From positions 6,073 through 70,072 of the forward strand of contig DOZJ01000004.1 in assembly GCA_003518055.1 (NCBI GenBank): a stretch of DNA of 64,000 nucleotides, in the 5' to 3' direction. This DNA is from Candidatus Falkowbacteria bacterium. Lineage in GTDB: Bacteria > Patescibacteriota > Patescibacteriia > UBA11705. Positions within the stretch are counted from its first letter, which is position 1. Every line of letters begins with the position of its first letter. Below the pieces are notes generated by a model. That model was not told the origin of the DNA and made no database searches. It saw nothing but the letters and a program-made list of their open reading frames with translations. Position numbers and translations under genes: made by a program. Below are positions 4,856-40,095 of the stretch, in pieces.

Positions 4856-4858
4856 ACT

Positions 4859-7973: not shown

Positions 7974-7974
7974 A

Positions 7975-9788: not shown

Positions 9789-9844
9789 ACCTACGCTCCT
9801 CACTATGTTCTGAGCTTCGGTTGGTAAACCAAAAATAATATAGT

Positions 9845-10138: not shown

Positions 10139-10141
10139 GAT

Positions 10142-10218
10142 GGCAGGGTAGCTCAGCTGGTCAGAGCGAGGGAATCATAACCCCTAGGTCGGCGGTTCGA
10201 TCCCGCCCCCTGTCACCA
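10142..10218 (+). tRNA. tRNA with anticodon CAT: elongator Met, or Ile2 if the base is lysidine-modified.
   Basis: Cloverleaf: acceptor ggcaggg/ccctgtc, anticodon loop atCATaa, T-loop TTCGATC, encoded CCA. Confidence 0.8.
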
Positions 10219-10235
10219 TTGCTTATTTTTACTAC

Positions 10236-11216: not shown

Positions 11217-11286
11217 GTAACTTCCCGATAGTAATACCCATTAATTTCAACCAATTTCAATTTATTTCTTTATTTCTTTTTTTCCT

Positions 11287-12861: not shown

Positions 12862-12880
12862 AATACAAAATTTATCTTTT

Positions 12881-14869: not shown

Positions 14870-15117
14870 AAAAAAAATTATTTCCGTACTGGCAGTATAC
14901 TACAAATCCCCACAATTCTCAAGCCATACCATAACATATAGGTAGCTGCCTTTGTAAAAAGCATCCCGAAATAGCCTGGCAATGTTAAACTCGATTTGTA
15001 AAATCCAAGATCAATTAATTTTATAGCTTTCGTAGTATTTGCGGTATTCGTAGTATTTGCCTGCCTGCCGGAGCTCGTTCAACAAGAGCATAGGCAGGTA
15101 ACCATTCGTAAATTCGT

Positions 15118-15148
15118 AACATTAAAAAAGACCTGATTATTATCAGAT
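15118..15148 (-). terminator. Terminator after the ABC ATPase gene.
   Basis: On the minus strand, agatctgataataatcaggtct followed by a T6 run. Confidence 0.5.
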
Positions 15149-16063
15149 CTAAATTGACTCAACCACCTCAGCCGCCACCGCACCCTGCTCCTCTGTCAAG
15201 GTCATGAAACTATCCGGATGCGTCTGATTGAACGCTTTGACGCTCTGACAGAATTTGGGCTCAAAACTCTCATGTCGAATCCGATGAATCAAATCGCTGA
15301 AGGCCGGAGACTTCTTGACCTCAGTCGACTTGATGCTTCGACCCAGATCATAATCAGACACAATGCGCGCGCCATGCTTCAAGCCATGACGGCCATCGCT
15401 GTAATATTGACTGAAAGCCACCACCCGAGAGCCCAAAAAAACCGCTTCTTCCAAATCATGGGTCACAAAGAAAATAGTCATCCCCGTCTCTTCCCAGACT
15501 TCCAAAATAAACATCTGCAGATCTTCACGCGTATACGGATCAAGCGCACCATAGGGTTCGTCCATCATCAAGATTTCCGGCTTCATAATCAATGCCTGAG
15601 CAATTGCGACCCGCTGCTGCTGACCGCCGGACAATTGATGCGGTTTTTTCTTCGCGTCATCTTCAAGACCAACCTTCTTCAAATAATACATGGCTTCATC
15701 TCGACTCGTCTCCATGCTTCCAAGTAATTCTAGGCATGTTGCTGTAAAAAGCTTACCGATCATTACATTTTCCATTGCTGTCAGATGAGGAAACAAACTG
15801 TAGCGCTGAAACACGATCCCTCGCGTCACGTCCGGATGGTAAATTTCCCGTCCATCGATCAGCATTGTACCGCTGGTGTGCCGCTCCTGCCCCAAAATCA
15901 ACCTGAGCATCGTCGACTTGCCGCAGCCGGATGGTCCGACCACCGTCACAAATTCCCCGCGGGACACCTTGAAGTCAATATCATCTAGAACCACGTTAGC
16001 GCCATACGCCTTCACCATGTCGAGACAATAAATCACATGATTCTCTTCTCTGGCGGCGCTCAT
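15149..16063 (-). CDS. ABC transporter ATP-binding protein (nitrate/sulfonate/bicarbonate NitT/TauT family, SsuB/TauB-like).
   Basis: Walker A GPSGCGKST; signature LSGGQQQRVAIAQAL; Walker B ILMMDEP. Confidence 0.85.
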   Translation of the reverse strand: MSAAREENHVIYCLDMVKAYGANVVLDDIDFKVSRGEFVTVVGPSGCGKSTMLRLILGQERHTSGTMLIDGREIYHPDVTRGIVFQRYSLFPHLTAMENVMIGKLFTATCLELLGSMETSRDEAMYYLKKVGLEDDAKKKPHQLSGGQQQRVAIAQALIMKPEILMMDEPYGALDPYTREDLQMFILEVWEETGMTIFFVTHDLEEAVFLGSRVVAFSQYYSDGRHGLKHGARIVSDYDLGRSIKSTEVKKSPAFSDLIHRIRHESFEPKFCQSVKAFNQTHPDSFMTLTEEQGAVAAEVVESI

Positions 16064-16072
16064 ATTTCCCTC

Positions 16073-17020
16073 CTATCCGTTTTTGATATCGACATACCAG
16101 CGGTATTTCCAATCGAGAATTTTCTTTAGAATAAAATTCATCAAAAACCCGATAGACGTAATCCAAAAAACAATGGGAATAATCAGGCTCATGTTCAAAT
16201 ACCGCCGCGACAAGAAAATGCGGTAAGCCAAACCATTCTTTGAAGCAATAGCTTCAGCCGCAATTAGAAACAACCACGCCGGACTCAGATACACTCTAAT
16301 CATCTCGATGAAACGAGGCATCACCTGAGGAAAAATAATGCGATAAACAATCGCCCACGAACTGGCGCCAAGCGTCAGCGCTTTAACAATCTGCTCCCGA
16401 GGAATGTTCTCAACCGCGATCTTGAGATCTCGAGTCATCAAAAAGGTGATCCCGAGCACAATCAAAGAAATTTTTCCCAACTCTTCCACTCCAAGCCCGA
16501 TAAAAATAATCGGCAAAATGGCCAACGGTGGAATAATGGACACGAAGGTCACAAATGGCATCCAAGTCGATCTAACCCAGGGGTAAATTCCCATCGACAA
16601 ACCCCAAATCAAAGACAGCACCGACGCAATCGAGACACCGATCAGCAACCGCTTCAAACTGGCCAACGTGTCATCCACAAACAAATTCTTGTCTGTCCTC
16701 TTGTCAGTTTCCACCACATAAATCTTGACCTGCTCATACATCTGCGAAATCGTCGGCAGAATCTTGTCTCTTGGATTTTCCTCGTGCCGCTTATTCGAAA
16801 AGTGAATATATGTCCCGAGAAGCAACACAAATGGAACGATCGCCAACAAAACCTTCGCCACTCGACTGGGACAATAGTGCAAACTAAAAAAAGTTTTTAC
16901 TGTGTTCCAAATCCGGCTCAAAACATTCACTCCCACGCTCCAAATCCATTTCAACATCTGCATTTGGGCCTCCTTTTGGGGCATTTGCTGGTTTACGTTT
17001 TTGTTATCAAAGAACCGCAT
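16073..17020 (-). CDS. ABC transporter permease (SsuC/TauC-like).
   Basis: Six TM segments and an EAA-like loop; operon context with the ATPase and the binding protein. Confidence 0.75.
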   Translation of the reverse strand: MRFFDNKNVNQQMPQKEAQMQMLKWIWSVGVNVLSRIWNTVKTFFSLHYCPSRVAKVLLAIVPFVLLLGTYIHFSNKRHEENPRDKILPTISQMYEQVKIYVVETDKRTDKNLFVDDTLASLKRLLIGVSIASVLSLIWGLSMGIYPWVRSTWMPFVTFVSIIPPLAILPIIFIGLGVEELGKISLIVLGITFLMTRDLKIAVENIPREQIVKALTLGASSWAIVYRIIFPQVMPRFIEMIRVYLSPAWLFLIAAEAIASKNGLAYRIFLSRRYLNMSLIIPIVFWITSIGFLMNFILKKILDWKYRWYVDIKNG

Positions 17021-17202: not shown

Positions 17203-18258
17203 CTAAAGCTTGCCGTCAGCGGCCATCTGCATATACTTGGTCGTGAAGCGCAGCTTCACGTTCCTCTTGTCTCCCATCACCGAACCATCCGGCAGCTCAA
17301 TCCCGACTTCATCCTTCGACTTCGCAGTCGGGCCGAACATTCCCTTATCGAAACAGAACGTCCGAACAAACTCCATGGTCTTGGCCAACGTCGCACTGGC
17401 CGTGAATTCAACCGCCGCCTTCGGTGTGTAGTACATGTACGTCGTCTTCAGCTGAGCCTCAAACTCCGCCAGCGTACCACCGGCCGTCTTGGCCATGAAA
17501 GTCAGAGCTTCCTTGGTAGGAGCGCCCTTACCCGACATCACCGCCATGGTCTCATACCAGGCTCCGGTCAGCGCCTTCTTGAGCTCTTCCGGCGCATCGG
17601 TCCTGACCACCAAGAGATCCAGAATCTCTCCGGGGATCTGTGCGCTTGTGAAAAGAACCTTCGCTCCGCGCTCCTGCCGAATCTTCATCACGATCGGGTT
17701 CCAAGTTACGACCGTTGTCTGCGGCGTTCGATTCGCGACGAACAAACCGGCAATTTCACTGTCACTCGTATTCACAAACGCTCCGAGATCAGCCTCGCTC
17801 ATACCGTTCATGGCGAGTGCCCGAGCTACCAGATAGTGACTGACACTGAGCTCAACACCGAAAATATCTCGGCCGCGCAGATCAGCCACGCTCGTCCCAC
17901 TGTAACTCACAATGGCATCATTGCCATCACTGTAATCACCGACGATCACCACCGTCGAGTCCTTGCCTCCTGATGCCGGAACCGTCAGCGCGTCCATGTT
18001 GGTCATGACACATGCATCATAATTTCCGGCCGTATACAGATTGATTGACTCCATGTAATCCATGGGAGGTGACAGCTCAATCGTAATGCCATACTTGTCG
18101 CCCCACTTCTTCAGCGTTCCCGCCTGTTCGGTCTGAGCCCACGGCTCCCAGCCCGTATAATGCGACCACGCCACCTTGTATGTCGTCTTCGCCATCACCG
18201 AACCAGCAAAAATCGTCGCCAGAATCATAGCCGTCAGAGTCAGCAGCATCTTTCTCAT
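17203..18258 (-). CDS. ABC substrate-binding protein (NMT1/SsuA/TauA family).
   Basis: Signal peptide; YKVAWSHYTGWEP...; GDYSDGNDAIV; operon context. Confidence 0.7.
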   Translation of the reverse strand: MRKMLLTLTAMILATIFAGSVMAKTTYKVAWSHYTGWEPWAQTEQAGTLKKWGDKYGITIELSPPMDYMESINLYTAGNYDACVMTNMDALTVPASGGKDSTVVIVGDYSDGNDAIVSYSGTSVADLRGRDIFGVELSVSHYLVARALAMNGMSEADLGAFVNTSDSEIAGLFVANRTPQTTVVTWNPIVMKIRQERGAKVLFTSAQIPGEILDLLVVRTDAPEELKKALTGAWYETMAVMSGKGAPTKEALTFMAKTAGGTLAEFEAQLKTTYMYYTPKAAVEFTASATLAKTMEFVRTFCFDKGMFGPTAKSKDEVGIELPDGSVMGDKRNVKLRFTTKYMQMAADGKL

Positions 18259-21712: not shown

Positions 21713-23428
21713 TCAGAGCGGCTTAAAGGCTGAAGCCTCAGCCTCCATGGAGATTAGGCGAAAATCCACCCGCATATTCTCCCGCCACTGCTGCTCCGTC
21801 TTGGGAGCGCAGGGATCGGCTCCGCACATACCGCTCCGCGGCTGCTCGAAGCCATGACCAACAACCGTAAACTGCGTCGGATCAAGCGTGACACCCTTGG
21901 ACGCGGCGTACTGAATAATCGAATCGCGAACAGTCATTGATCGCTGAACTGTAAGGCTCTTGGCAACCTGCCGCACCTGAGTCAGAATGACCTGTGGATC
22001 TCCGGCCTTCTTCTTGCGCAGATACCCCATCGGATCAGCATTCCCTTCAATAACAATCACCGCGCCGCCCAAAACTGCCGCCTGTGCAATGATCTGATCG
22101 TATTCATCCTGATAACGAGCAGCGGAAAAATCAATCTGGTTGGGCTCAAAGAAAATCGAACTGGTCGGGAGAATCTGATCAGAATCCAAAGTTCCGGTCC
22201 GCAATCGCGTGTCCACGACCGCTGCCACCCGTTCCTCATCGAAGAGCGGCTTTTCAGCCAGAATCTGCAGCTTGGCGCCGGAGCCCATCAACGAGTAGTC
22301 CCATTCGGCATGAGTGAGTGCTACCGTCGCGGCCATCAGTCCGAGGTCGCGGAAAGCCGACTGAATGTCAGCCACCACTTCCCGGAAACTGCGCCGAGCA
22401 CCCGCGCCGGAAAAAAACCTCTGATTTTCACCAATGTCGGAGAAAGTGCAGTCAGCATACATCGCCCCCGCGTCTTCCACCGCCTTGTCACTTCCGAGAA
22501 TAATCTTGGCAAACGCCTTGACCAGATCTCGGTATTCCTGCTTGCCCGCCTTGACCACGGCCGCCATATCCTGGCCAGCCCTGAGCATGGTCTGAGCAAA
22601 CGCGTAAACAGTTTCCTTGTGCGCGTTGAAGTAATCGCTTCTAACCGCAAACACATCGAAAATCACATGGTCAGCACTCTTGGTCGACAACAGAATACGC
22701 GCGCCCTTGACCGAACCCTCGGCACCGGTTCCAACCGTGCCGTTGCTCGACAGAGCCAGCGCGTCCGGGATAATGGCAAACGCCACATCAGCCTGACCGC
22801 GCCTGAGCGCCTCAGCCGCCGTCTTGTCCGAAGCCGTAAGGTCATCAGTCCAAACCAGCTTGACATCAGAAACACTGAGATTCACTGACTTGAGAATGCG
22901 CCAGAGATAGTACATATGCGGACCATAGGCCTGCAGCGCCACGCGCTTGCCCTTGAAATCCGCCGCCGTCTTGATGCCTTCGGTCACGACCACAGCGTCA
23001 CCGCCGGTTGACCGAGTCAGAAGCAGCACTACCACGGGCTGCACCCGAGGATCGCTCTTCGTCGCCTCTGTCACCGCGTTGATCATGTCGAGCGTGCCGC
23101 GCAGATATGGCGTCTTGCCGGACATATAATCCTTGAACTGCTGTCGGAAATCGTCCTGCAGCGTGATATCAAAACACAGCCCCGCCTGAGCAAAAAGAGA
23201 GCCGGACTTGGTCCGCTTCTCATTGCCATTGGCAAAAACCGTTTCATATTCACCACCCCAGGTAATCACCGGCAGCTGCACACAATCACTTGGAGTCACC
23301 TCTCCGACTGACACATGAACATCCTGCCAAATCGGCTTGAGCTGCTGAGCTGAAACCTGATTCGACACCAACGTCACCGCCAAAATCGCCCACAGACACC
23401 ACCTTCTCATGTCTCCCTCCTGCCCCAC
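21713..23428 (-). CDS. Secreted SsuA/NMT1-like solute-binding domain fused to a C-terminal OmpA-like domain. Paralog of 19184..20743.
   Basis: Signal peptide; LLTRSTGGDAVVVTEGIKTAADFKGKRV parallels ESNGGDAVVALEKAGKSLDDFRGKSV; C-terminus IFFEPNQIDFS...VIEGNADPMG...VVGHGFEQP. Confidence 0.6.
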   Translation of the reverse strand: MGQEGDMRRWCLWAILAVTLVSNQVSAQQLKPIWQDVHVSVGEVTPSDCVQLPVITWGGEYETVFANGNEKRTKSGSLFAQAGLCFDITLQDDFRQQFKDYMSGKTPYLRGTLDMINAVTEATKSDPRVQPVVVLLLTRSTGGDAVVVTEGIKTAADFKGKRVALQAYGPHMYYLWRILKSVNLSVSDVKLVWTDDLTASDKTAAEALRRGQADVAFAIIPDALALSSNGTVGTGAEGSVKGARILLSTKSADHVIFDVFAVRSDYFNAHKETVYAFAQTMLRAGQDMAAVVKAGKQEYRDLVKAFAKIILGSDKAVEDAGAMYADCTFSDIGENQRFFSGAGARRSFREVVADIQSAFRDLGLMAATVALTHAEWDYSLMGSGAKLQILAEKPLFDEERVAAVVDTRLRTGTLDSDQILPTSSIFFEPNQIDFSAARYQDEYDQIIAQAAVLGGAVIVIEGNADPMGYLRKKKAGDPQVILTQVRQVAKSLTVQRSMTVRDSIIQYAASKGVTLDPTQFTVVGHGFEQPRSGMCGADPCAPKTEQQWRENMRVDFRLISMEAEASAFKPL

Positions 23429-28371: not shown

Positions 28372-28668
28372 TTATTTTAATGGTAACCTTTTTTGTTCTC
28401 CCAGCAGTTTCAAAGATTCTTTTTGCCCTCGACCGGTTAATTTTACCTGTTCGATAAACCATTTATGCGGCGTTCTGCGACCGTAACCGATCAACAATTC
28501 CTTGTCGATCAAACTTTCCAGCGATCCGGTAATAATTTTCTGCCGCGCTTCTTTTTTTATTTTCACATTCCCCTTGTAAAATTCAACAAAAACTTTCCGC
28601 AGTGTTTTTTGCCCCGCTTTTTCCAAGCATTTCAGCAAAATAAATTTTTGCAAAGAGGAAAGTCTCAT
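28372..28668 (-). CDS. Small basic protein of 98 aa; possibly DNA- or RNA-binding.
   Basis: ORF only; Lys/Arg-rich; placed immediately upstream of 27606..28367. Confidence 0.3.
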   Translation of the reverse strand: MRLSSLQKFILLKCLEKAGQKTLRKVFVEFYKGNVKIKKEARQKIITGSLESLIDKELLIGYGRRTPHKWFIEQVKLTGRGQKESLKLLGEQKRLPLK

Positions 28669-28778: not shown

Positions 28779-30170
28779 TCAAACCCCTTTAATGTGTAAT
28801 TCATTTAAAACTTCTTTTGATATTTCGCTCGGGGCCCCCATCATCAAATCCTTAGCGTCACCAGTTTTAGGAAACGCAATTACTTCTCGGATATTCTTTT
28901 CATTTAAAAGTATCGCGATGAGACGGTCCAGCCCTAATGCGATTCCACCATGTGGAGGCGGGGCGAAGCTAAAAGCCTCAAGCAAATGCCCAAAACGTAA
29001 ACTAATCTCAGTTTCATTTAATCCTAATATTTGGAACACCTTCTTTTGTAAATCACGTTCAAATATTCTTAGACTTCCGCCACCAACTTCAAACCCATTT
29101 AAGACAAGATCATATGCCTCCGCCCGCACCTTTTCTGGTTTTTCTTCCATCATGTTAATATCATCATTTTTTGGTCGAGTAAATGGATGGTGCACCGAAA
29201 CCATTTTTTTCTCCGTATCGCTATATTCAAATAAAGGGAAATCGATAATCCAACCGAATGCCAATAAATTTGGATCTTGCTCTGTGCGCAAGTCCGGTTT
29301 ATCACTTTTATACAATTTTTGTGCTTCCATATATGTTAAGCGTGGAAATGGTATTTGCTGCATTCTTAAATTCGGGAAAAGCTCTTTCACCAAATCAATC
29401 ATGGCTTTTTCTATCAATTGCAAGATATCTTCTTGATCTATAAAAGACATTTCTAAGTCAAATTGGGTAAATTCCGGTTGACGATCACCACGCTGATCTT
29501 CATCACGAAAACAGCGAACAACCTGGTAATAACGTTCAATTCCAGCAACCATTAGCAACTGCTTAAACTGTTGTGGTGATTGTGGTAAAACATAAAAATT
29601 CCCTTTATGAATCCGAGAAGGGATAACGAATTCGCGCGCACCCTCTGGCGTTCCCTTGGTCAGATAAGGCGTCTCAATTTCCCAGAAACCTTGTTTCGAA
29701 AAATAATTGCGTAAAAACAAATTTATTTCTTGCCTCTTTTTCAAATTGTTTTTTACTCGTTCACTACGAATATCCAAATACCGATATTTCAATCGCATGC
29801 CCTCACTCAATTCAAGAGTATTCTGCTCAACTTCAAAAGGCAAAGCTTCAGACTCTGAAATAATAAAAATATTTAAGACTAAAATTTCAATTCGATCCAG
29901 CTGCACTACAAAACTCTTTTGTTTATCACCCCTTTTTTGTACAATTCCGTTTATTTCAACCAACCAACCCAATCGAACGTTGCTCAAGACATCAATTGAG
30001 TGTTGATCCAAATCATTACCTACGCCGACTACCTGAACTACACCCGAACGATCCCTAATGTCTAAAAAAACAATCTTGCCCATATTACGTCTAGCTGCAA
30101 CCCAACCCTTAATCCAAACCGTCTCCCCTATTTTGCTGACTGCTTCTTCTAAAAAAATGTATTTACTCAT
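28779..30170 (-). CDS. aspS: Aspartyl-tRNA synthetase (compact form of 463 aa).
   Basis: FRDEDQRGDRQPEFTQFDLEMSF (class IIb motif 2, bacterial AspRS type); OB-fold N-terminus; motif 3 GGGSLRI. Confidence 0.8.
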   Translation of the reverse strand: MSKYIFLEEAVSKIGETVWIKGWVAARRNMGKIVFLDIRDRSGVVQVVGVGNDLDQHSIDVLSNVRLGWLVEINGIVQKRGDKQKSFVVQLDRIEILVLNIFIISESEALPFEVEQNTLELSEGMRLKYRYLDIRSERVKNNLKKRQEINLFLRNYFSKQGFWEIETPYLTKGTPEGAREFVIPSRIHKGNFYVLPQSPQQFKQLLMVAGIERYYQVVRCFRDEDQRGDRQPEFTQFDLEMSFIDQEDILQLIEKAMIDLVKELFPNLRMQQIPFPRLTYMEAQKLYKSDKPDLRTEQDPNLLAFGWIIDFPLFEYSDTEKKMVSVHHPFTRPKNDDINMMEEKPEKVRAEAYDLVLNGFEVGGGSLRIFERDLQKKVFQILGLNETEISLRFGHLLEAFSFAPPPHGGIALGLDRLIAILLNEKNIREVIAFPKTGDAKDLMMGAPSEISKEVLNELHIKGV

Positions 30171-30178: not shown

Positions 30179-31153
30179 TTAGTAATCCTTTATTTGTTTT
30201 ATTATATTCTCAACTATTTTAACATTTTGCATTGCCTCATATGCTTCCGGTTCAAATTTTTTTCCCTTCATAATTGCCCAATAAAAATCGTTTAACTCTT
30301 TATTTTCAGCATCTTCAGCAACATAATCAATCTCTTTACGATTGAGACCACTATGCTTCTGAATAAACAATCCATTAAAAGGATCCACAAACAAACTACC
30401 TTTTGTACCAAAAAAATTTATATAAAATGTTTCCTGTAAAACATAGCTGGAAACTAAATGAACCAAACAACCATTATCCAGCTCAAATATCGAAGAAAAC
30501 GTTTCTGGATTTTCTGTTGTTAAAAACTTCTTTTGACATAAAGTCATAAAACTTTTACCTTCAAACCCGCAAACGAATCTGATCGTATCTATAATATGAA
30601 TTCCCATTTGAATTAGCGGCCCGCCATTACATGAAGTCCGATAATAACGCCAATTATTTTTATCAATCCGATATCCAATTGGTCTTGACCTGTTTCCATC
30701 GATTAGAATCAAATCCCCAAGAACACCAGAATTAACCATCTTTTTAGCTTTTCTAAATATAGAATAACGACGTACATTATGCCCTACAGCCAAAAGAGTT
30801 TTATTCTTTCTGCAAGCCTTCAAAATTTCGGCGCATTCAGATGACGTATTAGCAAGCGGCTTTTCAACAAAAATTTTCTTCCCTGCTTTGGCCGCAGCTA
30901 CAATTTGTTCCTTATGATATTGATTTGGAGAAAAAATAAAAACAACCTTTATCTGACTATTTACCAAAATTTTCTGAAAATCGTCAACCCCCAAACAATT
31001 TAATTTCATTGCCGTAGAATGTGTTTTATTCTTATCTGAATCAAAAACAGTCAAAATATTAAATTTATTTGTTTTTTTTATTTTCTGAATCATTTGTTGC
31101 CCCCACCAACCTAACCCAATAACAGCACAACCTATCTTATTTTTTTCTTTCAT
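30179..31153 (-). CDS. Gfo/Idh/MocA-family NAD(P)-dependent sugar oxidoreductase.
   Basis: Rossmann N-terminus IGCAVIGLGWWGQQMI; family-typical EKPLA motif. Confidence 0.7.
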   Translation of the reverse strand: MKEKNKIGCAVIGLGWWGQQMIQKIKKTNKFNILTVFDSDKNKTHSTAMKLNCLGVDDFQKILVNSQIKVVFIFSPNQYHKEQIVAAAKAGKKIFVEKPLANTSSECAEILKACRKNKTLLAVGHNVRRYSIFRKAKKMVNSGVLGDLILIDGNRSRPIGYRIDKNNWRYYRTSCNGGPLIQMGIHIIDTIRFVCGFEGKSFMTLCQKKFLTTENPETFSSIFELDNGCLVHLVSSYVLQETFYINFFGTKGSLFVDPFNGLFIQKHSGLNRKEIDYVAEDAENKELNDFYWAIMKGKKFEPEAYEAMQNVKIVENIIKQIKDY

Positions 31154-31160
31154 ACTGCAA

Positions 31161-31940
31161 TTATATTCTATTTTCTAAATAATGTTGATATAAATTTACA
31201 GGAAGATTGAATTGCCCATCAGTATATTTAATAAGTTCTTTTTTGATTTTTGAAAAATTTTTTTCCCGTTTAATAACAGCATTTCGGTTAAATTTACAAA
31301 ATAACGCTAAAGATTGCAACTCTTCATTGTTCTTCCACGGAACCCAACTTAAACCCTTTAACAATCTTATTTTATTTTTAGAATCTGGGTATGGCTCAAT
31401 ATTTAACAAATAAACTAAATCTAAAATGGAATCAAAACAATATGATAAAAGCTGTTGTGCTGAAAAATAATCCTTTCGTAATAGAAATTTTGATAAGTGG
31501 GTTGTAGTTTTAAGCCCCCGCCAGTCGTCCGAAAATTCAAGAATAACACTAAGGGCTACAAATTTATTAATTATTTTCCCGACAATCTCTTTTTTCCAAT
31601 ATTCTTTCTTAATTGCTATGATTTGCTTCAAATTTTTCTGTCTATCATAGATAATTCTCTCATCCCAAAAAGCAAAAAACATTTCGCATGACCATTCATC
31701 CAGAAACTGCTTCAAAGTTATAATTCTTACATCAAACAACTTATTATCTTTATAGTACTTACCATGAGGTATGTTTTTAGTTGTTTTTTTTACTATCACG
31801 ACAATATCAATATCAGATAAAACATCAAAATCACAACGACCATAACTTCCAGTCAAAATAGCACCCAGGCAATTTGTATTACCTCTCAAATCAACGACAT
31901 AATCATTAAGATAAAAAGGTGACTTAAACATAATTTTCAA
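31161..31940 (-). CDS. Pol-beta-superfamily nucleotidyltransferase (ANT/LinB-like minimal NTase).
   Basis: GSYGRCDFDVLSDIDIVVIV, i.e. the GS-x9-13-[DE]h[DE]h motif. Confidence 0.55.
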   Translation of the reverse strand: MKIMFKSPFYLNDYVVDLRGNTNCLGAILTGSYGRCDFDVLSDIDIVVIVKKTTKNIPHGKYYKDNKLFDVRIITLKQFLDEWSCEMFFAFWDERIIYDRQKNLKQIIAIKKEYWKKEIVGKIINKFVALSVILEFSDDWRGLKTTTHLSKFLLRKDYFSAQQLLSYCFDSILDLVYLLNIEPYPDSKNKIRLLKGLSWVPWKNNEELQSLALFCKFNRNAVIKREKNFSKIKKELIKYTDGQFNLPVNLYQHYLENRI

Positions 31941-32937
31941 TACATTTTTGACTAATATCTGAAATTTTCCGACAGTTAGAAAATAACATAGCTTTTACTA
32001 GTTCATTTTGCATTTTCCTCAACAAAGAAATAAGGCCTGGTCTACCACCACCAACAACTGCATATACGGCCTCCCGGCCTATTAACACCCCATCCGCACC
32101 CAAGGCCAAACAAATGAAAGTTTCAAAACCATTTGAAATACCACCATCAACAAGAATTGTCATTTTCCCTTTGAACGTTTTAGCTATTTGCGATAAAACT
32201 GACAATGGAGCCGCTGCATAATCAAAAGACCGCCCTCCATGGTTTGAGACAACAACGCCATCGTAACCACAATCATGAGCGATTTGAGCATCATTTAAGC
32301 TCAAAATTCCTTTTAAAAACATAGGCCCATGATATAACAATCGTATTTCTTTTAACTCCTTTGCGTTTTTTCTAAAAACTTTTTTTTCATTTGATAGAAA
32401 CACACCACCAATACCATCCAAATCAATACCAATTACTTTAACATGAACTTTTTTCAATAACATTATACGTTTTTTTATTTCATCAAAACTTCTGGGTTTA
32501 CAAACAGCAATCCCATCGTTTTGGCTCAACAACTCTGGAACATCATAATTCTGTGTTGTATCAAAGCTATCTCCACACATTCCAATCATCCCACATTTAG
32601 AACAACTAGTAAGGATCATCTTTAAAAACACTTTTTCACTAATGAAACCATTAAGATTAGATTTAATTCCACTCATGGGAGCAACCATAATTGGCGCTGA
32701 CAAATCAAAACCAAATAAAAAACTTGTTGTGTCGGGGGTAAAATTATCCCCAATAATCTGTGATTTAATCTGGTAATTCTCAAACATTTTTTTATTACGC
32801 GTATACGAAACGCCACTGCCAGCCCATCCTAAACCTGGTAAACTCATCATGCCAGAACAATAATCATTACCTGCCCTCCCACTCAATCTTTCCATTTTTT
32901 TTCTACCATTTTTTATAATCTTATCAAAATTAACCAT
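31924..32937 (-). CDS. FMN-dependent alpha-hydroxy-acid dehydrogenase/oxidase family (TIM barrel).
   Basis: VVSNHGGRSFD active-site motif; ILVDGGISNG. Confidence 0.55.
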   Translation of the reverse strand: MVNFDKIIKNGRKKMERLSGRAGNDYCSGMMSLPGLGWAGSGVSYTRNKKMFENYQIKSQIIGDNFTPDTTSFLFGFDLSAPIMVAPMSGIKSNLNGFISEKVFLKMILTSCSKCGMIGMCGDSFDTTQNYDVPELLSQNDGIAVCKPRSFDEIKKRIMLLKKVHVKVIGIDLDGIGGVFLSNEKKVFRKNAKELKEIRLLYHGPMFLKGILSLNDAQIAHDCGYDGVVVSNHGGRSFDYAAAPLSVLSQIAKTFKGKMTILVDGGISNGFETFICLALGADGVLIGREAVYAVVGGGRPGLISLLRKMQNELVKAMLFSNCRKISDISQKCIENYV

Positions 32938-34084
32938 ATAATTTGATCGCTTTCTCTAATATTGTTATTGCAAAATCAATATCTGTCTTAGTAATAATAA
33001 ATGGTGGTAACATCCGTATAACATTTTTATTAACAACATCCAATAAAAGTCCGTTATCAAAACAAAATTCAACAATCTCATTGGCGTTTAATCCGACTTC
33101 TATGCCCAGCATTAAACCCATACCCCGTATTTCGATTATAGTTTTGTATTTAATTTGTAGGGACTTCAAACGTCGAAACAAATAATCTGCTTTTTCATTT
33201 ATACTCCTAATATTCTTTTTTTTATCAAGGTAATCTAGAATATAACATCCTGCAGCGCAAGCCACAGAATTCCCCCCCATGGTACAACCATGATCTCCAG
33301 GTTTTATCACGTCGGCGATGGATTTCCGCATCAAAGTGGCCGCCAACGGGAACCCGCCCCCAAGAGATTTTGCAAGAGTAAGGATATCTGGTTTTAATTG
33401 AATTTTCTTTGATAATAACACCGACCCGCAACGACCCAACCCAGTCTGAACCTCATCAACAAATATTAGACATCCAGTTTTTTTACATTTTTGTTGTATC
33501 AAACGAACCAATTTTCTGTCCATAAGACGAATTCCACCGTGCCCTTGTAATAATTCCACATGAACAGCCAATGTCTTGCTGGAAAAAACATCTAAAAAAG
33601 CTGCACAATCATTTAATGGGATTCTTTTGATTTTAATCTTTTCAACTCTTTTCAGATTTGTCAAAGAACGTGAACCGTATGTTCTACCGACAAACGAACC
33701 ATTAAAAGAAATTAATTCATCTTGATTTTTTAATACAGTTTCGTGATATTTTTTAATGAAAACCAACGCCGCTTCATTTGCTTCTGTCCCACTATTAGAA
33801 AAAAACACACGATCCAATGAACTCATTTTTACAAGTTTTTTTGCTAAATTTATTTGCGACTCTGTAAAATAATAATTTGAAGCATGGACAACCTTATCAA
33901 TCTGACTTTTCATTACCATCTTTAATTCTTCATTAGAAAACCCCAGATTATTAATTGAAATTCCACTAATAAAATCTAGGTATCTCCGCCCACGATCGCC
34001 AAAGAGACTAACAACACTACCTGATTCAACAATCAAGGGTTTCTTATTATAGTTATTAACAAATAATTTTTGTTCAATCCCCAT
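32930..34084 (-). CDS. Class-III PLP-dependent aminotransferase.
   Basis: FFSNSGTEANEAAL; FVDEVQTGLGRCG; PLP lysine in TLAKSLGGG. Confidence 0.8.
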   Translation of the reverse strand: MGIEQKLFVNNYNKKPLIVESGSVVSLFGDRGRRYLDFISGISINNLGFSNEELKMVMKSQIDKVVHASNYYFTESQINLAKKLVKMSSLDRVFFSNSGTEANEAALVFIKKYHETVLKNQDELISFNGSFVGRTYGSRSLTNLKRVEKIKIKRIPLNDCAAFLDVFSSKTLAVHVELLQGHGGIRLMDRKLVRLIQQKCKKTGCLIFVDEVQTGLGRCGSVLLSKKIQLKPDILTLAKSLGGGFPLAATLMRKSIADVIKPGDHGCTMGGNSVACAAGCYILDYLDKKKNIRSINEKADYLFRRLKSLQIKYKTIIEIRGMGLMLGIEVGLNANEIVEFCFDNGLLLDVVNKNVIRMLPPFIITKTDIDFAITILEKAIKLYG

Positions 34085-34088
34085 AATC

Positions 34089-35237
34089 TTAGTATGTCAT
34101 CCTTTTTTCAAATTCTAATTCTACTTTTTCTAAAATAGACGCAATTTTCTTCCCAGCGCTACCATCCCCATAATATTCATTCCGTTTGTATTTTCCATGT
34201 ATCAATTGTTTCCGTATAGCGTTTATAATTTTATTTTTATCCATTGAGCAATCGATAACATTTTGACATCTTAATCTCCCTATTTGACGATTACCCACAT
34301 TAACAGACGGTACACCCAGGAATGATGATTCTCTTATTCCCACGCTCGAATTGCCTACAATACATTTTGAATTTTTTATTAACAACAAATAATCATCGGC
34401 ATTAAAATGCTTAAAAAAATGAATTTTACCGACCTTATCCATAGATTTAAAATTCAAAATTTCTTTTCGCAAAATATCTCCACCCGCATCAATATTTGGA
34501 TACATCCAAATAGTCTGCAATCCTATTATCTTTATTGCTTCTAACAAAACACGAAAATTACGAACATTCTCAATAATGTTTTTTTCAGTCGTTACGGGAT
34601 GAAAAGAAACTAGCAAATAATTATCCCCTAAAATAAACCTTTTTTCATAATCTCCCGAATCTTTTGATATAAAGATTTCTTTAGGATCATTTTTAGGTAA
34701 CCTACGACAAATATCTATTGTTGGACAACCAGTTACGAACACATTTTTTTTATCTTCTCCCATTTTAATTACACGCTTAGCACAATCTTTATTTGAAACA
34801 AAATGCAAATTAGCGAACTTAGTAATAGCATGACGAACACTATCGTCAATCGATCCTGTTATTTCACCACCTTGAATATGAGCCAAAGATATGTTCATAT
34901 AACGTGCCGCAATGGCCGCCGCCAAGGCTTCATAACGATCAGCAATCACGACAACCACATCTGGCCTATCGTGTACCAATTCAACAGCCAAATCAATCAC
35001 AGCTAAACCGGTAGATTTAGTCATCGTCAAAAGGTTGCTCCCTGAAATATTAGTATACAACACAGAAACATTGTTTGTGATTTTATTTATTTCATCTAAA
35101 ACTCCTCCATGATCTTGAATAGCCGCTGCTTCGAACACGATAATACGATAGCTATTATCTGGCAAATATTTAATAATCGGCCGCACCCTAGCAAAGTGGG
35201 CTCTGTTCCCAACAACAAAAGCGATTTTTCTTAGCAT
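34089..35237 (-). CDS. UDP-N-acetylglucosamine 2-epimerase family, NeuC/LegG-like (probably the hydrolysing type).
   Basis: ADRYEALAAAIAARYMNISLAHIQGGEITGSIDDSVRHAITKFANLHF; SFHPVTTE. Confidence 0.65.
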   Translation of the reverse strand: MLRKIAFVVGNRAHFARVRPIIKYLPDNSYRIIVFEAAAIQDHGGVLDEINKITNNVSVLYTNISGSNLLTMTKSTGLAVIDLAVELVHDRPDVVVVIADRYEALAAAIAARYMNISLAHIQGGEITGSIDDSVRHAITKFANLHFVSNKDCAKRVIKMGEDKKNVFVTGCPTIDICRRLPKNDPKEIFISKDSGDYEKRFILGDNYLLVSFHPVTTEKNIIENVRNFRVLLEAIKIIGLQTIWMYPNIDAGGDILRKEILNFKSMDKVGKIHFFKHFNADDYLLLIKNSKCIVGNSSVGIRESSFLGVPSVNVGNRQIGRLRCQNVIDCSMDKNKIINAIRKQLIHGKYKRNEYYGDGSAGKKIASILEKVELEFEKRMTY

Positions 35238-35292
35238 AAAATAAATAATATTATACTCCTATAATCATTCATAAATAAAATCACAAAAATGA

Positions 35293-36588
35293 TTACGGCG
35301 TTATCCGATTTATCATCCTCGGAAATGGAATAGTCTCCCTCACATGATGAATACCGCACATCCAGCGGGTCAATCTTTCAATCCCCATACCAAAACCGCA
35401 ATGAGGCACTGATCCGTATTTGCGCAAATCCAAATACCACTCAAAATCCGCCATTGGCAATTTCGCTTCTTCCATTCGTTGTTTTAATACCTGATAATCA
35501 TCTTCTCTCTGCGACCCGCCGATAATTTCCCCAAACCCTCTCGCCGCCAGCATGTCCGCGTTCAAAACCAAATCAGGATTGGCCGGATGCCGTTTCATGT
35601 AAAATGGTTTTATTTCTTTCGGCCAATTTTTCACTATAACAGGAACTGCCGAATCATTGGTCAATAATTCTTCATCATCAGCGCCAAGATCATCGCCATA
35701 TTTAATATCTGAACCGCGTTTTTGCAGTTCTTCAATCGCCGCCCCGTATTCATAATGAATAAACGGCTGATCAACAATCGCTTGAAGTTCTGTGGTGTCG
35801 CGTTCCAACATCTTCAATTCTTCCTGACCGTGCTCTAAAACATATTTTGCCAAATACTTAACTGCCGCTTCTTGAATTTTCAAACTGTCTTCATGCTCGC
35901 AAAAAGCGATTTCCGGATTCAATGACCAAAACTCCGTTAAATGTTTTCGGGTCTTTGATTTTTCCGCTCGAAAATTTGGACATAAATCATAAACTTTACC
36001 AAAAGACATTGCTAAGGCTTCCAAATATAGCTGCCCATTCTGAGTTAAGTAAGCTTTCCGATCAAAATACTCCACTTCAAACAAATCCGAGGTACCTTCA
36101 CAGCTTGTCGGCGTAAATGTCGGCGTATCCAACTCTTTATATCCATTATTATTAAAAAATTCCTGCAATCCCATTTTTACCAGATGACGAATTCGCAGCA
36201 CCGCCCACTGACTTTGCGCCCGGAGCCACAAATGTCTATTGTTCAACAAAAAATCCGGTCCATGCTCTTTCTTGCCGATCGGATATTCCTCCGCTATCTG
36301 AACAATCTTCAAATCAGTCACCTGCAATTCAAAAACATCATCTTGCTTCGGATGCTTTGTCACTTTACCCTGAATTTCCACCGATGATTCCAGCGTCAAC
36401 TTTTCCACCTGAACCCAAATTTCCGACGATAACTGATCTTTCACCGCTACCGCCTGAGCAAAACCGCTGCCGTCGCGGACTTGCAAAAAGGCAATTGCTC
36501 CTGAAGACCGCAAATTATAAACCCAGCCCTTGATTAAAACTGTTTGATCTTGGTTGTCTCTAAAATCTTTGATGTAGCTCTGCTGCAT
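35293..36588 (-). CDS. asnS: Asparaginyl-tRNA synthetase.
   Basis: FRAEKSKTRKHLTEFWSLNPEIAF (AsnRS motif 2); motif 3 GFGMGIERL. Confidence 0.8.
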   Translation of the reverse strand: MQQSYIKDFRDNQDQTVLIKGWVYNLRSSGAIAFLQVRDGSGFAQAVAVKDQLSSEIWVQVEKLTLESSVEIQGKVTKHPKQDDVFELQVTDLKIVQIAEEYPIGKKEHGPDFLLNNRHLWLRAQSQWAVLRIRHLVKMGLQEFFNNNGYKELDTPTFTPTSCEGTSDLFEVEYFDRKAYLTQNGQLYLEALAMSFGKVYDLCPNFRAEKSKTRKHLTEFWSLNPEIAFCEHEDSLKIQEAAVKYLAKYVLEHGQEELKMLERDTTELQAIVDQPFIHYEYGAAIEELQKRGSDIKYGDDLGADDEELLTNDSAVPVIVKNWPKEIKPFYMKRHPANPDLVLNADMLAARGFGEIIGGSQREDDYQVLKQRMEEAKLPMADFEWYLDLRKYGSVPHCGFGMGIERLTRWMCGIHHVRETIPFPRMINRITP

Positions 36589-36708: not shown

Positions 36709-37173
36709 TTGTTAAAATGTCTATATATGGAAAATACCCACCCCACAATTCAAGACGTCCTTCAAGCAGTCAATGCGACAACCGAATCAACAAACAAACA
36801 ATTCGCCCAAATTCAAGAACAATTTAATGATGTCTTGCAATCGGTAAACACAGCTTCTGAATTGACCCAGAAACAATTTGATCATGTTCAAGAACAATTT
36901 GATCACGTTCAAGGACAATTTGATCAGATGCAAGGCCAAATCACCGAAATAAATGAAACCATGGCCACGAAGGCTGACTTGGCCGATCTTGTTACCAAAG
37001 ACTACCTTGACAACAAACTCGCTGACCTGCGTGGCGATTTAGTTGTTTTAACGCGTAAAGAAGACACCAAACTAAAAAAACTGGTGGATATTTTGACCAC
37101 AAAAAATCTTCTTTCCCCGGAAGAAAAAGAAGTCATTTTTGCCTTGGAGCCATTTCCGAAAACTCGCTTATAA
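36709..37173 (+). CDS. Hypothetical coiled-coil protein with QF-x-x-VQEQFD heptad-like repeats.
   Basis: Repeats QFAQIQEQFNDV / QFDHVQEQFDHVQGQFDQMQGQ. Confidence 0.4.
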   Translation: MLKCLYMENTHPTIQDVLQAVNATTESTNKQFAQIQEQFNDVLQSVNTASELTQKQFDHVQEQFDHVQGQFDQMQGQITEINETMATKADLADLVTKDYLDNKLADLRGDLVVLTRKEDTKLKKLVDILTTKNLLSPEEKEVIFALEPFPKTRL

Positions 37174-38605: not shown

Positions 38606-39520
38606 ATGTCCTTCAAAACCCTGCCAGTAAAGAAAATTCGTCCCGAAGCAACATTGCCTATTCGCACTACTGACAATGCGGTTGGCTATGATGTTTTCGC
38701 TTCCACTGCATTCCGTGTTGATCGTGCCGATGATCAAAGAAAAATTCAAGAAGAAATCCCTTTTCCGGTAACGATCAATCCGCATGAAAGTTTTCTTTTT
38801 GGTATTGGCATTGCCATGGCTCTCCCGTGGCCTTATGAATGCCAAGTCCGGTCACGAAGCGGCATCGCAACTTATGATAAAATTCAAATGCTCAATTCAC
38901 CTGGCACGGTTGATCCTGATTTCCGCGGTGAAGCCGGCGTGCTTCTCTTTAACCAAGGGAGCAAGCCTTACTTGGTCCACCCCAACCAAAGAATCGCGCA
39001 GTTGATTTTTTCTAAAGTGGAAATTCCAGACTTGATTGAAACAGATGAATTGCCGGAAACTCGCCGCGCTGAAGGTGGGTTCGGTTCCACCGGCCAATTT
39101 GGCACCGGCCTCGGCACCGAAGAATATCGACGCCGCCAATCGATTATCGATCAACAGTTCATGGCTATGGCGGAAGCGTGCGGCCTCCGTGCCAGAATCA
39201 GCTCCAGTCAAAAATCAAGCGGCTGTGTCATTGTCCATCGCGACAATATCATTGCATTTGGCTGCGAAAATTGCGCCTTATCATTTACTCCAATCAGCTG
39301 TATCCTTGATGCGATTACCAAGGCGGCCAGAGCTGGACATTCGACTCATGACAGCTGCGCCTATGTGACAGCCGATGAGATTTCCATCGTTGATCTGAAT
39401 CTTCTAATTTATTCCGGCATCACTGAAGTTGTATTCCCTGCCGCCACGACTGAAAAAGCCGTCACGCAAAAAATTGTCAAACATTTGTCCAAAGTAAATA
39501 TCGAAGTCCGCTACGCCTAA
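38606..39520 (+). CDS. dut: dUTP diphosphatase fused to a C-terminal degenerate dCMP-deaminase-like domain.
   Basis: All five dUTPase motifs are present (AVGYDV, RSRSG, GTVDPDFRG, QRIAQL, RAEGGFGSTG). Residues 165-304 align to ComEB (QQFMAMAEACGLRARISS...GCVIVHRDNIIAFG against QYFMAQSHLLALRSTCTRLAVGATIVRDKRIIAGG), but the HAE and PCxxC motifs are not evident. Confidence 0.7.
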   Translation: MSFKTLPVKKIRPEATLPIRTTDNAVGYDVFASTAFRVDRADDQRKIQEEIPFPVTINPHESFLFGIGIAMALPWPYECQVRSRSGIATYDKIQMLNSPGTVDPDFRGEAGVLLFNQGSKPYLVHPNQRIAQLIFSKVEIPDLIETDELPETRRAEGGFGSTGQFGTGLGTEEYRRRQSIIDQQFMAMAEACGLRARISSSQKSSGCVIVHRDNIIAFGCENCALSFTPISCILDAITKAARAGHSTHDSCAYVTADEISIVDLNLLIYSGITEVVFPAATTEKAVTQKIVKHLSKVNIEVRYA

Positions 39521-39546: not shown

Positions 39547-40095
39547 TCAACTGCGCCTTTCGCAACCGACAGAACCATGTTTTACCGCGTTATATCGAAT
39601 ATAATGACGAATCCGTTCCAATGATTTTTCATCACGAATAATGTGATCATGATATGATCGTTGCCATTTAAAATTTAACCAACCTGATTGATGGATTAAT
39701 TTGGATGCGGCGGATTTAAACGATCCAATTATCACCGGCAATTTTTCATAATTATGATTATTAATTACCACCGGTAAATGTAGGTGCAAGGTATGCCTTG
39801 CACCTACATTTACGTTGCCGGTCCCAATCACATCATCCAAATTTTTAATAAATAAAATACCATGAACATGATCCGGTAATACGTTAAATTCATCTATTTC
39901 CACTATTTCAAAATGTCGCTCTAGCTCCACCCAACATTTTTTCACCCATTCTCCGTATTGATTTAGTTTCATTTCTCCCTCGATAATTCTACCCAAATCA
40001 AAACTCCCGCGCCTCACTTTGATCGTCACAAAATAATAACCATATCGGCCGTAATTCCAACCGTCCAAACGCCTTGATTTATATTCATTAAACAT
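39547..40095 (-). mobile_element. tnpA: IS200/IS605-family (HuH Y1, RAYT-like) transposase TnpA gene.
   Basis: YYFVTIKVRR; HuH motif LPDHVHGILFI; C-terminal SYHDHIIRDE...YIRYNAVKHG. It carries an unusual insert of about 30 aa between the HuH motif and the IIGSFKS helix. Confidence 0.65.
39774..39813. repeat. A perfect 18-bp inverted repeat (gtaaatgtaggtgcaagg / ccttgcacctacatttac) with a 4-nt loop, lying inside the tnpA coding sequence.
   Basis: Read directly from the sequence. It maps onto the extra GNVNVGARHTLHLHLP segment of TnpA. Confidence 0.85.

Follow-up and report, generated by a model that had tools for sequence, protein, structure and literature searches.

Gene content and base composition of the cassette

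The 64-kb stretch of Candidatus Falkowbacteria DNA analyzed here (from a tiny groundwater bacterium of the Patescibacteria, or candidate phyla radiation [CPR]), hereafter the window and numbered as a whole, carries a five-gene cassette at positions 30179 to 35237, between the aminoacyl-tRNA synthetase genes asnS and aspS. The five open reading frames (ORFs) run head to tail on the minus strand and encode proteins of 382, 384, 337, 259, and 324 amino acids. Profile hidden Markov model (HMM) searches identified the product of the first gene (34089 to 35237) as a hydrolyzing UDP-2-acetamido-sugar 2-epimerase of the NeuC/LegG type. It is followed by genes for a class-III pyridoxal phosphate (PLP) aminotransferase resembling ArgD, LysJ, and DapC, whose acceptors are N-acyl-amino-acid omega-aldehydes or keto compounds (32930 to 34084); a divergent FMN-dependent dehydrogenase with the alpha-hydroxy-acid oxidase fold, assigned by Pfam and by its AlphaFold2 (AF2) model (31924 to 32937); an orphan Pol-beta-superfamily nucleotidyltransferase with a helical C-terminal domain and the architecture of ANT(4′) and LinB (31161 to 31940); and a Gfo/Idh/MocA NAD(P)-dependent sugar oxidoreductase, assigned by Pfam (30179 to 31153). 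The catalytic motifs of the cassette proteins were intact and their lengths agreed with those of orthologs. Identical copies of the nucleotidyltransferase and FMN_dh were also present in metagenome data for the same strain, namely a 305-kb JGI contig and several other contigs.

The first two genes are 4 bp apart, the second and third overlap by 8 bp, the third and fourth by 17 bp, and the last two are separated by 7 bp. The 259-residue nucleotidyltransferase starts at a TTG codon; the NCBI record uses the ATG at 31931, which gives 256 amino acids and shortens the 17-bp overlap to 8 bp. Upstream, asnS (35293 to 36588, minus strand; PRK03932, 532.6 bits) is separated from the cassette by an AT-rich 55-bp spacer (35238 to 35292, minus strand) that, as read from the sequence, extends from the asnS stop to the epimerase start and forms the left island junction. 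Downstream, 8 bp away, lies aspS (28779 to 30170, minus strand; PRK00476, 606 bits), encoding a housekeeping, Patescibacteria-type aspartyl-tRNA synthetase (AspRS) without the GAD domain. Both synthetases exceeded the equivalog cutoffs of their HMMs. The tight same-strand packing recorded in a first-pass annotation of this DNA was confirmed from the ORF coordinates, and the two motifs it had singled out, VSNHGGR and GSYGRCDFDVLSDIDIVV, are both present in the translations. A promoter-like site was located upstream of asnS (36641 to 36613, minus strand), although the frequency of such sites here is not above chance. The transcription unit probably begins with asnS, and in the window genome the cassette is probably co-transcribed with asnS and aspS.

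The block is markedly AT-rich. The cassette genes have GC contents of 0.286 to 0.348 and third-position GC contents (GC3) of 0.246 to 0.278, compared with 0.448 ± 0.049 and 0.477 ± 0.077, respectively, for the remaining 52 ORFs. Their GC3 values are thus the five lowest among the 57 ORFs of the window, approximately 2.8 standard deviations under the window mean, in agreement with the earlier remark that the block is more AT-rich than its flanks. asnS, with a GC3 of 0.435, is host-like.

Family assignments of the cassette proteins

All five family assignments made in the first-pass annotation were upheld by HMM or fold tests, with differing degrees of specificity. The epimerase matched Epimerase_2 (227 bits) and, over residues 3 to 369 of 382, the NeuC_NnaA model TIGR03568 (334.6 bits; cutoff, 235.9), whereas the model for the non-hydrolyzing WecB enzymes scored only 72 bits against a cutoff of 210. 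Its best sequence matches in the Protein Data Bank (PDB), with about equal scores, were the epimerase domain of human GNE (4zht) and LegG (5xvs). By these matches the epimerase is of the hydrolyzing NeuC/LegG/GNE class, with the corresponding predicted activity.

Membership of the aminotransferase in class III was clear (Aminotran_3, PF00202, 292 bits), and its translation carries the motifs DEVQTG and LAKSLGGG, the latter with the PLP-binding lysine. The argD subfamily model TIGR00707 scored 365.7 bits, under its cutoff of 410.05. PDB matches comprised the N-acetylornithine (AcOrn) aminotransferases 2eh6 (262 bits) and 2ord, the AcOrn/N-acetyllysine aminotransferase 1vef, and 2pb0; relatives in the PDB also include AcOrn/succinyl-diaminopimelate aminotransferases. 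In the Gfo/Idh/MocA enzyme both the N- and C-terminal domains were found (PF01408, 85.7 bits; PF22725, 74.1 bits; PF02894, 50.7 bits), as was the EKP motif, in the form FVEKPL. The best NCBIfam models were D-xylose 1-dehydrogenase Gfo6 (126 bits; cutoff, 350) and IolG (119 bits; cutoff, 355), and a UDP-GlcNAc 3-dehydrogenase model scored nearly as well, likewise far under its cutoff. The best PDB matches were 3db2, aldose-aldose oxidoreductase, and glucose-fructose oxidoreductase (GFOR), so that the top matches include dehydrogenases acting at C1 of free aldoses (D-xylose 1-dehydrogenase, aldose-aldose oxidoreductase, and GFOR).

The FMN enzyme matched PF01070 (FMN_dh) with 182 bits (cutoff, 24.9). 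Its AF2 model (pLDDT, 83) is a full-length TIM barrel that Foldseek superimposed on glycolate, mandelate, and hydroxy-acid oxidases (1gox, 5zzt, and 2w0u) with TM scores of 0.77 to 0.80. The catalytic Lys and the His-Arg dyad (K230, H254, and R257 in the numbering of spinach glycolate oxidase) are kept, and the motifs FLKGI and VSNHGGR align with those of lactate oxidase (LOX) and HAO2 and are invariant in 20 family members. Three substrate-carboxylate residues were considered, Tyr24, Tyr129, and Arg164. Profile positions 92 to 190, which hold Tyr129 and Arg164 in the classical enzymes, could not be aligned to any solved member, and this segment has family-invariant motifs of its own (GDSFD, CKPR, and GIDLDG). 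The protein represents a branch that has diverged from the other FMN hydroxy-acid oxidases.

An FMN_dh 61% identical to one of the cassette copies (that of locus L010, introduced below) sits beside a DegT aminotransferase in contig L009 (GCA_040384205.1), where positions 1 to 17014 form a glycan cluster containing an operon of a short-chain dehydrogenase/reductase (SDR), FMN_dh, DegT, and a second SDR. This cluster also encodes GT2 and GT11 glycosyltransferases, C- and O-methyltransferases, an MptE-like protein, and a 631-amino-acid protein in which NeuB is fused to an AP_endonuc_2 (xylose-isomerase-like) domain. The presence of this FMN_dh in a NeuB cluster, adjacent to DegT, ties the FMN subfamily to aminosugar chemistry; it recurs in such contexts, paired with an aminotransferase. 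FMN_dh homologs on plasmids (Vescimonas and Acetoanaerobium) were stand-alone genes or lay in unannotated sequence and were uninformative.

The nucleotidyltransferase is an orphan by sequence. It matched NTP_transf_2 (PF01909) at 25.3 bits (cutoff, 21), no NCBIfam family at an E value of ≤0.01, and no PDB sequence at an E value of ≤1. An exhaustive HMMER search of 1.84e9 proteins gave 63 cluster representatives, 10 of them at an E value of ≤1e−30. A word-indexed homolog search returned only the query itself, scans of genome contigs with nucleotide patterns derived from the alignment found no relative, and a plasmid search found no homolog. The degenerate pattern TGSxGRxDxDxxSDxD, applied to genome contigs, picked out 20 unrelated loci, mostly in high-GC metagenome-assembled genomes, that had no tblastn similarity to the cassette proteins. 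Its members come almost exclusively from metagenome contigs of the Patescibacteria type. With its AF2 model (pLDDT, 93), the best Foldseek matches were ANT(4′) (6nmk and 1kny), LinB (3jyy), ANT(4′)-IIb, and ANT(6), with 4ebk and 8vxb among them (E values, 1e−8 to 5e−6; TM scores, 0.47 to 0.56; 12 to 14% identity in the structural alignments). The ANT/LinB likeness proposed from the sequence was therefore borne out at the level of the fold. A Pol-beta core bearing a G-[GS]...D-x-[DE] motif is joined to a helical C-terminal domain, the same two-domain plan and G-S...D-x-D motif as in ANT(4′) (kanamycin nucleotidyltransferase), LinB, and ANT(6), and G31-S32, D43, D45, and D70 are conserved across orthologs (GSYGR...SDID).

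This structural resemblance to ANT(4′), LinB, and ANT(6) could mean that the protein is an aminoglycoside- or lincosamide-type resistance enzyme and that its neighbors belong to unrelated metabolism, and horizontal acquisition of the island, described below, would suit such a gene. However, identity to the ANT enzymes is only 12 to 14%, no NCBIfam resistance model was matched, and the family, of extreme rarity, is not represented on plasmids. Known ANT and LinB genes are stand-alone resistance genes, whereas the nucleotidyltransferase was found only in the cassette (eight fully read loci and two partial contigs), embedded in a biosynthetic operon with a reading frame that overlaps its neighbor. 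Since it never occurs alone and always lies in a biosynthetic-looking operon, an antibiotic-modifying set, one of the options raised in the first-pass annotation, is unlikely; resistance as the function of the enzyme is extremely improbable, and its role appears to be biosynthetic.

Conservation of the cassette among Patescibacteria

Sister loci were found through the neighborhoods of FMN_dh relatives at 45 to 62% identity. The same gene order, epimerase, class-III aminotransferase, FMN_dh, nucleotidyltransferase (245 to 266 amino acids), and Gfo/Idh/MocA enzyme, was present in approximately 10 contigs from four Patescibacteria lineages: L007 (GCA_964362205.1); L008 and L034, from two JGI samples; L010, L037 (GCA_018400305.1), and L031; L033/L035 and L032; and L036. 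Eight loci, counting the window, were fully read, and L031 and L032 are partial contigs; the nucleotidyltransferase occurs only inside the cassette in all ten. A metagenome scan yielded three further loci, all relatives of those already known. Pairwise identities between orthologs were 57 to 64% for the epimerase, 47 to 57% for the aminotransferase, 47 to 62% for FMN_dh, 36 to 45% for the nucleotidyltransferase, and 47 to 57% for the Gfo enzyme. That the whole cassette is kept as a unit in several lineages supports the earlier suggestion of a dedicated aminosugar pathway. At NCBI, contigs of the type of L010 (Logan SRR14234111; MCB0367847.1) are labeled Bdellovibrionales; its AspRS is nevertheless of the CPR type, without the GAD domain, and is 61 to 62% identical to the AspRS of L008 and L034, and the GC content is approximately 0.36. 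This bin was probably mislabeled.

In six of the eight fully read loci a gene for a metallo-beta-lactamase (MBL)-fold protein of approximately 215 to 250 amino acids precedes the epimerase gene; the window and L035 are without it. In the four loci tested, the best matches of this protein were in each case lactonases (AiiA, AttM, YtnP, and 4-pyridoxolactonase), with weak scores. Lactones open spontaneously and a lactonase is typically dispensable, which would fit the absence of the MBL gene from two loci.

The first-pass annotation had also pointed to the lack of NeuB and NeuA, and this extends to the sister loci. No PF03102 (NeuB/LegI/PseI-type) synthase was found in any cassette locus, and no NeuA-type CMP-sugar synthetase (CTP_transf_3) was found among the called genes within 8 to 10 kb on either side. 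For the window itself, tblastn with the NeuB domain of L009 detected no NeuB-like gene in the 64 kb, neither Pfam family occurs within 10 kb on either side of the cassette, and the window contains no homolog of an NDP-sugar dehydrogenase or of DegT. In none of the eight fully read loci was the cassette linked to a glycosyltransferase, flippase (Wzx), Wzy polymerase, or ABC export gene, and no acetyltransferase family was represented in any cassette locus. In L036, the MBL gene and cassette are immediately preceded (2013 to 5687) by genes for a serine recombinase, a HIT protein resembling HinT, and a kinase resembling APH(3′) (117 bits; cutoff, 205), and a truncated NDP-sugar dehydrogenase gene follows aspS (12207 to 13061).

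An accessory island exchanged as a block

Close relatives, as judged by AspRS identity, lack the cassette (L038, 71%; Magasanikbacteria L040/L041, 67%), which identifies it as an accessory island. These genomes retain a block of aspS, a small ORF, scpA, scpB, and an S11 peptidase gene, which is also found 3′ of aspS in L007 and, more loosely, in the window. Upstream of aspS they have a pseudouridine synthase or GAPDH gene instead; the asnS-aspS interval had been proposed for comparison in relatives, and L038 and L040 have no cassette upstream of aspS. A 98-amino-acid ORF without a Pfam match lies just downstream of aspS in the window (28372 to 28668, minus strand), L007 (13293 to 13589), and the cassette-free L038 (10568 to 10864) and belongs to the native aspS-scpA-scpB synteny.

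GC contents of cassette and flanks were 0.33 and 0.45 in the window, 0.35 and 0.42 in L007, 0.34 and 0.47 in L008/L034, and 0.445 and 0.50 in L036; the cassette equals its surroundings in the low-GC loci L010 and L037 and in L035. The clearest evidence for exchange comes from L008 and L034. Their AspRS proteins are 100% identical, and their DNA is 98 to 100% identical from a histidine kinase gene through aspS. Identity drops to 0.61 to 0.80 exactly from the start of the MBL gene, remains there to the end of the Gfo gene, and returns to 0.90 to 0.99 from mreB onward. The swapped island ends in a non-homologous gene, for an S51 peptidase (aspartyl-dipeptidase/cyanophycinase family) in L008 (10971 to 11708) and a major facilitator superfamily (MFS) transporter in L034 (11302 to 12483). 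Such divergence of a block between near-identical flanks indicates whole-block allelic replacement.

These observations leave virtually no room for reading the cassette as routine housekeeping genes in conserved synteny whose composition differs by chance, a view to which the tight packing with two essential synthetase genes might have lent itself. It is already refuted by the absence of the cassette from close relatives, the five lowest GC3 values of the window, the replacement of the block between near-identical strains, and a nucleotidyltransferase family so small in so large a protein set. Integrase-type site-specific insertion was likewise unsupported: no tRNA genes, att-like direct repeats, Rfam elements, or terminators were found at the cassette borders in the window, and a recombinase gene is nearby only in L036.

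E. coli's clusters of O-antigen genes provide a parallel, as they have a GC content under that of the genome, lie between galF and gnd, and are exchanged via recombination in these flanking genes (PMC7685785). O-antigen and capsule loci share with the cassette a lower GC content, a fixed site beside housekeeping genes, and allelic replacement of the whole block (PMC7685785). Unlike them, the cassette has no glycosyltransferase, Wzx/Wzy, or ABC-transporter genes, its alleles keep their gene content and differ mainly in sequence, and its conserved flank is an aminoacyl-tRNA synthetase gene.

The cassette could accordingly be thought of as the front end of a nonulosonic-acid (sialic- or legionaminic-like) or other surface-glycan pathway, in which the NeuC-type enzyme would make a free hexosamine, the remaining cassette enzymes would tailor it, and NeuB/NeuA-type and transferase genes elsewhere in the genome would complete and attach it, with allelic swapping reflecting diversifying selection on a surface antigen. 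The epimerase does pass the NeuC_NnaA equivalog cutoff, a 61%-identical FMN_dh lies inside the NeuB/DegT/glycosyltransferase/methyltransferase cluster of L009, and the low GC content and flank-mediated replacement recall O-antigen loci (PMC7685785). However, NeuB, NeuA, glycosyltransferase, flippase, and polymerase genes were linked in none of the eight fully read loci, and the 64-kb window has no NeuB-like gene. A GT4 gene approximately 17 kb off belongs to conserved synteny that is also seen in the cassette-free L038, and the swapped unit extends exactly from the MBL gene to the Gfo gene, which suggests a functionally complete block. A front end of this kind is, on balance, unlikely. The cell-surface sugar pathway put forward in the first-pass annotation is possible in general terms, although the glycosyltransferase, flippase, and NeuB/NeuA that it would call for accompany the cassette in no locus.

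Linkage to aspS

An AspRS gene adjoins the cassette on one side in every locus, its product being 48 to 73% identical to the window AspRS, and apart from aspS the neighbors of the cassette differ from locus to locus. Three topologies were observed. The cassette is followed by aspS on the same strand in the window, L007, L010, L037, and L031; aspS is followed by the MBL gene and cassette in L008 and L034; and the two are convergent with a 4-bp overlap in L035, L032, and L036. asnS is next to the cassette in the window genome only. The earlier description of a cassette "between asnS and aspS" therefore holds generally for aspS, the universal neighbor, but for asnS it is peculiar to this genome.

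The synthetase itself is unremarkable. GAD-less AspRS of 460 to 500 amino acids is the standard Patescibacteria form, represented by hundreds of clusters, and the possibility that the short, 463-amino-acid AspRS is a special resistance paralog was rejected on this ground. Patescibacteria AspRS proteins are uniformly of approximately 460 amino acids and bacterial-type by sequence, with the GAD insertion domain of approximately 130 amino acids cleanly missing, and the AspRS profile match splits into two stretches of the 590-residue model. The aspS GC content is host-like in L008 and L034. In the window its GC3 is an intermediate 0.34, uniform along the gene, and aspS of the cassette-free L038 is also below its neighbors; co-import of the window aspS with the cassette was rejected for these reasons.

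The preferred explanation of the linkage is that aspS serves as a conserved recombination anchor for the cassette, since the breakpoint between L008 and L034 falls at the aspS 3′ end. Co-transcription cannot account for the adjacency where the two are convergent.

The same linkage can be read functionally. The product might be a diffusible bioactive aminosugar-nucleotide, aminoglycoside-like or mimicking an aminoacyl-adenylate, that is connected to aspS via target, resistance, or co-regulation, in which case nucleotidylation would be a self-protecting cap or part of the pharmacophore. That aspS adjoins the cassette in every locus, across three topologies of which one is convergent, speaks for a link of this type, as do the ANT(4′)/LinB/ANT(6)-like fold of the nucleotidyltransferase, the lack of a linked glycosyltransferase, the MFS transporter in the variable segment of L034, and the two genes directly upstream in L036, one for an APH(3′)-like kinase and the other for a HIT protein resembling HinT. 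The APH and HIT genes are, however, confined to that one locus, and the adjacent AspRS is of the ordinary Patescibacteria type, in native synteny and with host-like GC in L008/L034; no second, sensitive aspS copy is in evidence, PADLOC returned no matches, and the chemistry gives no specific pointer to aspartate. A bioactive product of this description is distinctly unlikely. Very improbable, too, is a functional adjacency in which the cassette makes an N-acetyl polyhydroxylated diamino (di)acid from a UDP-2-acetamido sugar and the ANT-like enzyme links it to a nucleotide, giving an aminoacyl- or aminoalkyl-adenylate-like product that would act on a class-IIb aminoacyl-tRNA synthetase or its tRNA; an episymbiotic CPR bacterium could then direct it at its host, as a weapon or a signal, or use it to regulate its own AspRS. 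An anti-phage defense system was also considered and was dropped after PADLOC gave no meaningful match.

Comparison with characterized pathways

The cassette epimerase is of the type found in the nonulosonic-acid pathways (NeuC, LegG, and GNE). In place of the NeuB-type condensing enzyme and NeuA-type CMP-synthetase of those pathways, which both the cassette loci and the window lack, the cassette has two oxidoreductases, a class-III aminotransferase, and a Pol-beta nucleotidyltransferase. Amination of sugars by an oxidase or dehydrogenase together with a class-III aminotransferase occurs in the 6′-amination of neamine (NeoQ/NeoB and GenQ/GenB1), in Kdo8N (KdnB/KdnA), and, with GabT1, in 1-deoxynojirimycin. 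These systems resemble the cassette in converting a hydroxyl to a carbonyl that is then transaminated by a class-III or omega-type PLP enzyme. The oxidants of the NeoQ, GenQ, and KdnB type are GMC/FAD enzymes or iron-dependent alcohol dehydrogenases, whereas that of the cassette has the fold of FMN alpha-hydroxy-acid oxidases, and none of these systems is known to begin with a hydrolyzing 2-epimerase or to end with a Pol-beta nucleotidyltransferase. ArgD, LysJ, and DapC, the closest solved relatives of the cassette aminotransferase, take as substrates N-acyl alpha-amino acids that bear an aldehyde or alpha-keto acid in a distal position, the shape expected of an oxidized 2-acetamido sugar acid. 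The cassette enzyme differs from them in scoring under the argD cutoff and in lying in a sugar operon, in an organism where no arginine or lysine pathway context is visible.

In the Wbp/Wlb route to UDP-ManNAc3NAcA, which employs WbpA, WbpB, WbpE, WbpD, and WbpI (PMC10622841), a Gfo/Idh/MocA dehydrogenase, a PLP aminotransferase, and a 2-epimerase likewise work on a GlcNAc-derived sugar (PMC10622841). All steps of that route take place on the UDP-sugar, with a DegT-type aminotransferase and a non-hydrolyzing, WecB-like epimerase, and a 6-dehydrogenase and an N-acetyltransferase are needed. The cassette, in contrast, has a hydrolyzing epimerase and a class-III, ArgD-like aminotransferase, lacks an acetyltransferase, and adds the FMN enzyme and the nucleotidyltransferase. 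Its combination of enzymes matches none of the nonulosonic-acid, Wbp (PMC10622841), kanosamine/NTD, and aminocyclitol schemes. Full-text searches of the literature turned up neither this combination of genes nor an aspS cluster in CPR bacteria, which, their coverage being limited, is absence of evidence only; a search on Kdo8N was likewise unproductive. The cassette is an uncharacterized sugar-tailoring operon in which each protein comes from a known superfamily and the combination differs from the schemes just named.

A proposed pathway

The reading favored here, which has about an even chance of being correct, joins two propositions: that the cassette is a self-contained operon, acquired horizontally and exchanged between Patescibacteria by homologous recombination with aspS as one conserved flank, and that it encodes a short pathway by which a UDP-2-acetamido sugar would be remodeled to give an amino-sugar acid carrying a nucleotidyl group. 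The specific regiochemistry set out below is doubtful at best.

In the order we infer, each enzyme is assigned the reaction typical of its family. The NeuC-type epimerase would free a 2-acetamido-manno-sugar from UDP-GlcNAc or UDP-GlcNAcA, and the Gfo/Idh/MocA enzyme would oxidize the free sugar, most simply at C1, to a lactone. Opening of the lactone to the sugar acid could be carried out by the lactonase-like MBL protein where present and would be spontaneous in the window, which has no MBL gene. The divergent FMN dehydrogenase may then turn the hydroxyl beside a carboxylate into a carbonyl, from which the ArgD/LysJ/DapC-like aminotransferase would make an amine. Finally, the ANT(4′)/LinB-like nucleotidyltransferase is predicted to add a nucleoside monophosphate to a hydroxyl of the product, either for activation towards transfer or as a cap. 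A uronic input such as UDP-GlcNAcA would be simplest for the FMN step, given that the C5 hydroxyl and C6 carboxylate of the opened aldaric acid constitute an alpha-hydroxy acid; the resulting N-acetyl-2-amino-5-oxo diacid would resemble N-acyl-2-amino-6-oxopimelate, a DapC/ArgD substrate. The product could serve as the activated donor of a surface decoration, or it could be a small molecule in capped form.

Several observations weigh against this reading. A plain ManNAc-derived aldonic acid offers the FMN enzyme no alpha-hydroxy acid, so the scheme works only with a uronic-acid input or with an FMN substrate that is not of the classical kind; L036 is the only locus with a gene for an NDP-sugar dehydrogenase nearby, and that gene is truncated, and the FMN enzyme has no alignable Tyr129/Arg164 region. 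The matches of the Gfo, MBL, and aminotransferase proteins are all under equivalog cutoffs, which makes the regiochemistry and the order of reactions guesses. The Gfo protein of L008/L034 differs and is very divergent (22 to 34% identity). A consistently linked transferase or exporter is absent, the MFS gene being present only in L034. With respect to exchange, a recombination anchor alone fails to explain three cassette/aspS topologies.

Other features of the window

GC skew is negative in all 1-kb bins of the window, the cumulative skew reaching −14.8, and from approximately 11 kb onward most genes lie on the minus strand. Divergently upstream of asnS is a gene for a 154-amino-acid coiled-coil protein with tandem QFDHVQEQFDHVQGQFDQMQGQ-type repeats (36709 to 37173, plus strand), for which Pfam matches were weak and sub-cutoff (best, DUF948). 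A 304-amino-acid fusion protein (38606 to 39520, plus strand) combines a dUTPase/dCTP-deaminase-like domain with a C-terminal cytidine/dCMP-deaminase zinc-binding region, a compact pyrimidine-salvage fusion. Beside it is a gene for a 182-amino-acid relative of IS200-like Y1 transposases (39547 to 40095, minus strand; 21.5 bits with a Pfam cutoff of 23; GC3, 0.32), approximately 4 kb from the cassette, to which no link was found. Two genes for NMT1/phosphonate-binding-like substrate-binding proteins (17203 to 18258 and 21713 to 23428, minus strand) have high GC (0.55 to 0.56) and GC3 (0.64 to 0.68; mean, 0.48) and may mark another acquired segment.

Implications for Patescibacteria

The features that set this cassette apart are an orphan ANT-fold nucleotidyltransferase, a divergent branch of FMN oxidases, and an O-antigen-style block exchange anchored at an aminoacyl-tRNA synthetase gene in CPR bacteria. 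The replacement seen between L008 and L034 is island exchange of the O-antigen kind in these organisms, and the strict linkage to aspS presents a concrete puzzle. Should the adenylate-like product considered above prove real, the cassette would define a new class of CPR natural product, and an ANT-fold enzyme would have been put to a new use in biosynthesis. Patescibacteria have tiny genomes and very little biosynthetic capacity, so a traded pathway of five or six enzymes likely matters for how these episymbionts present themselves to, or interact with, their hosts or phages.

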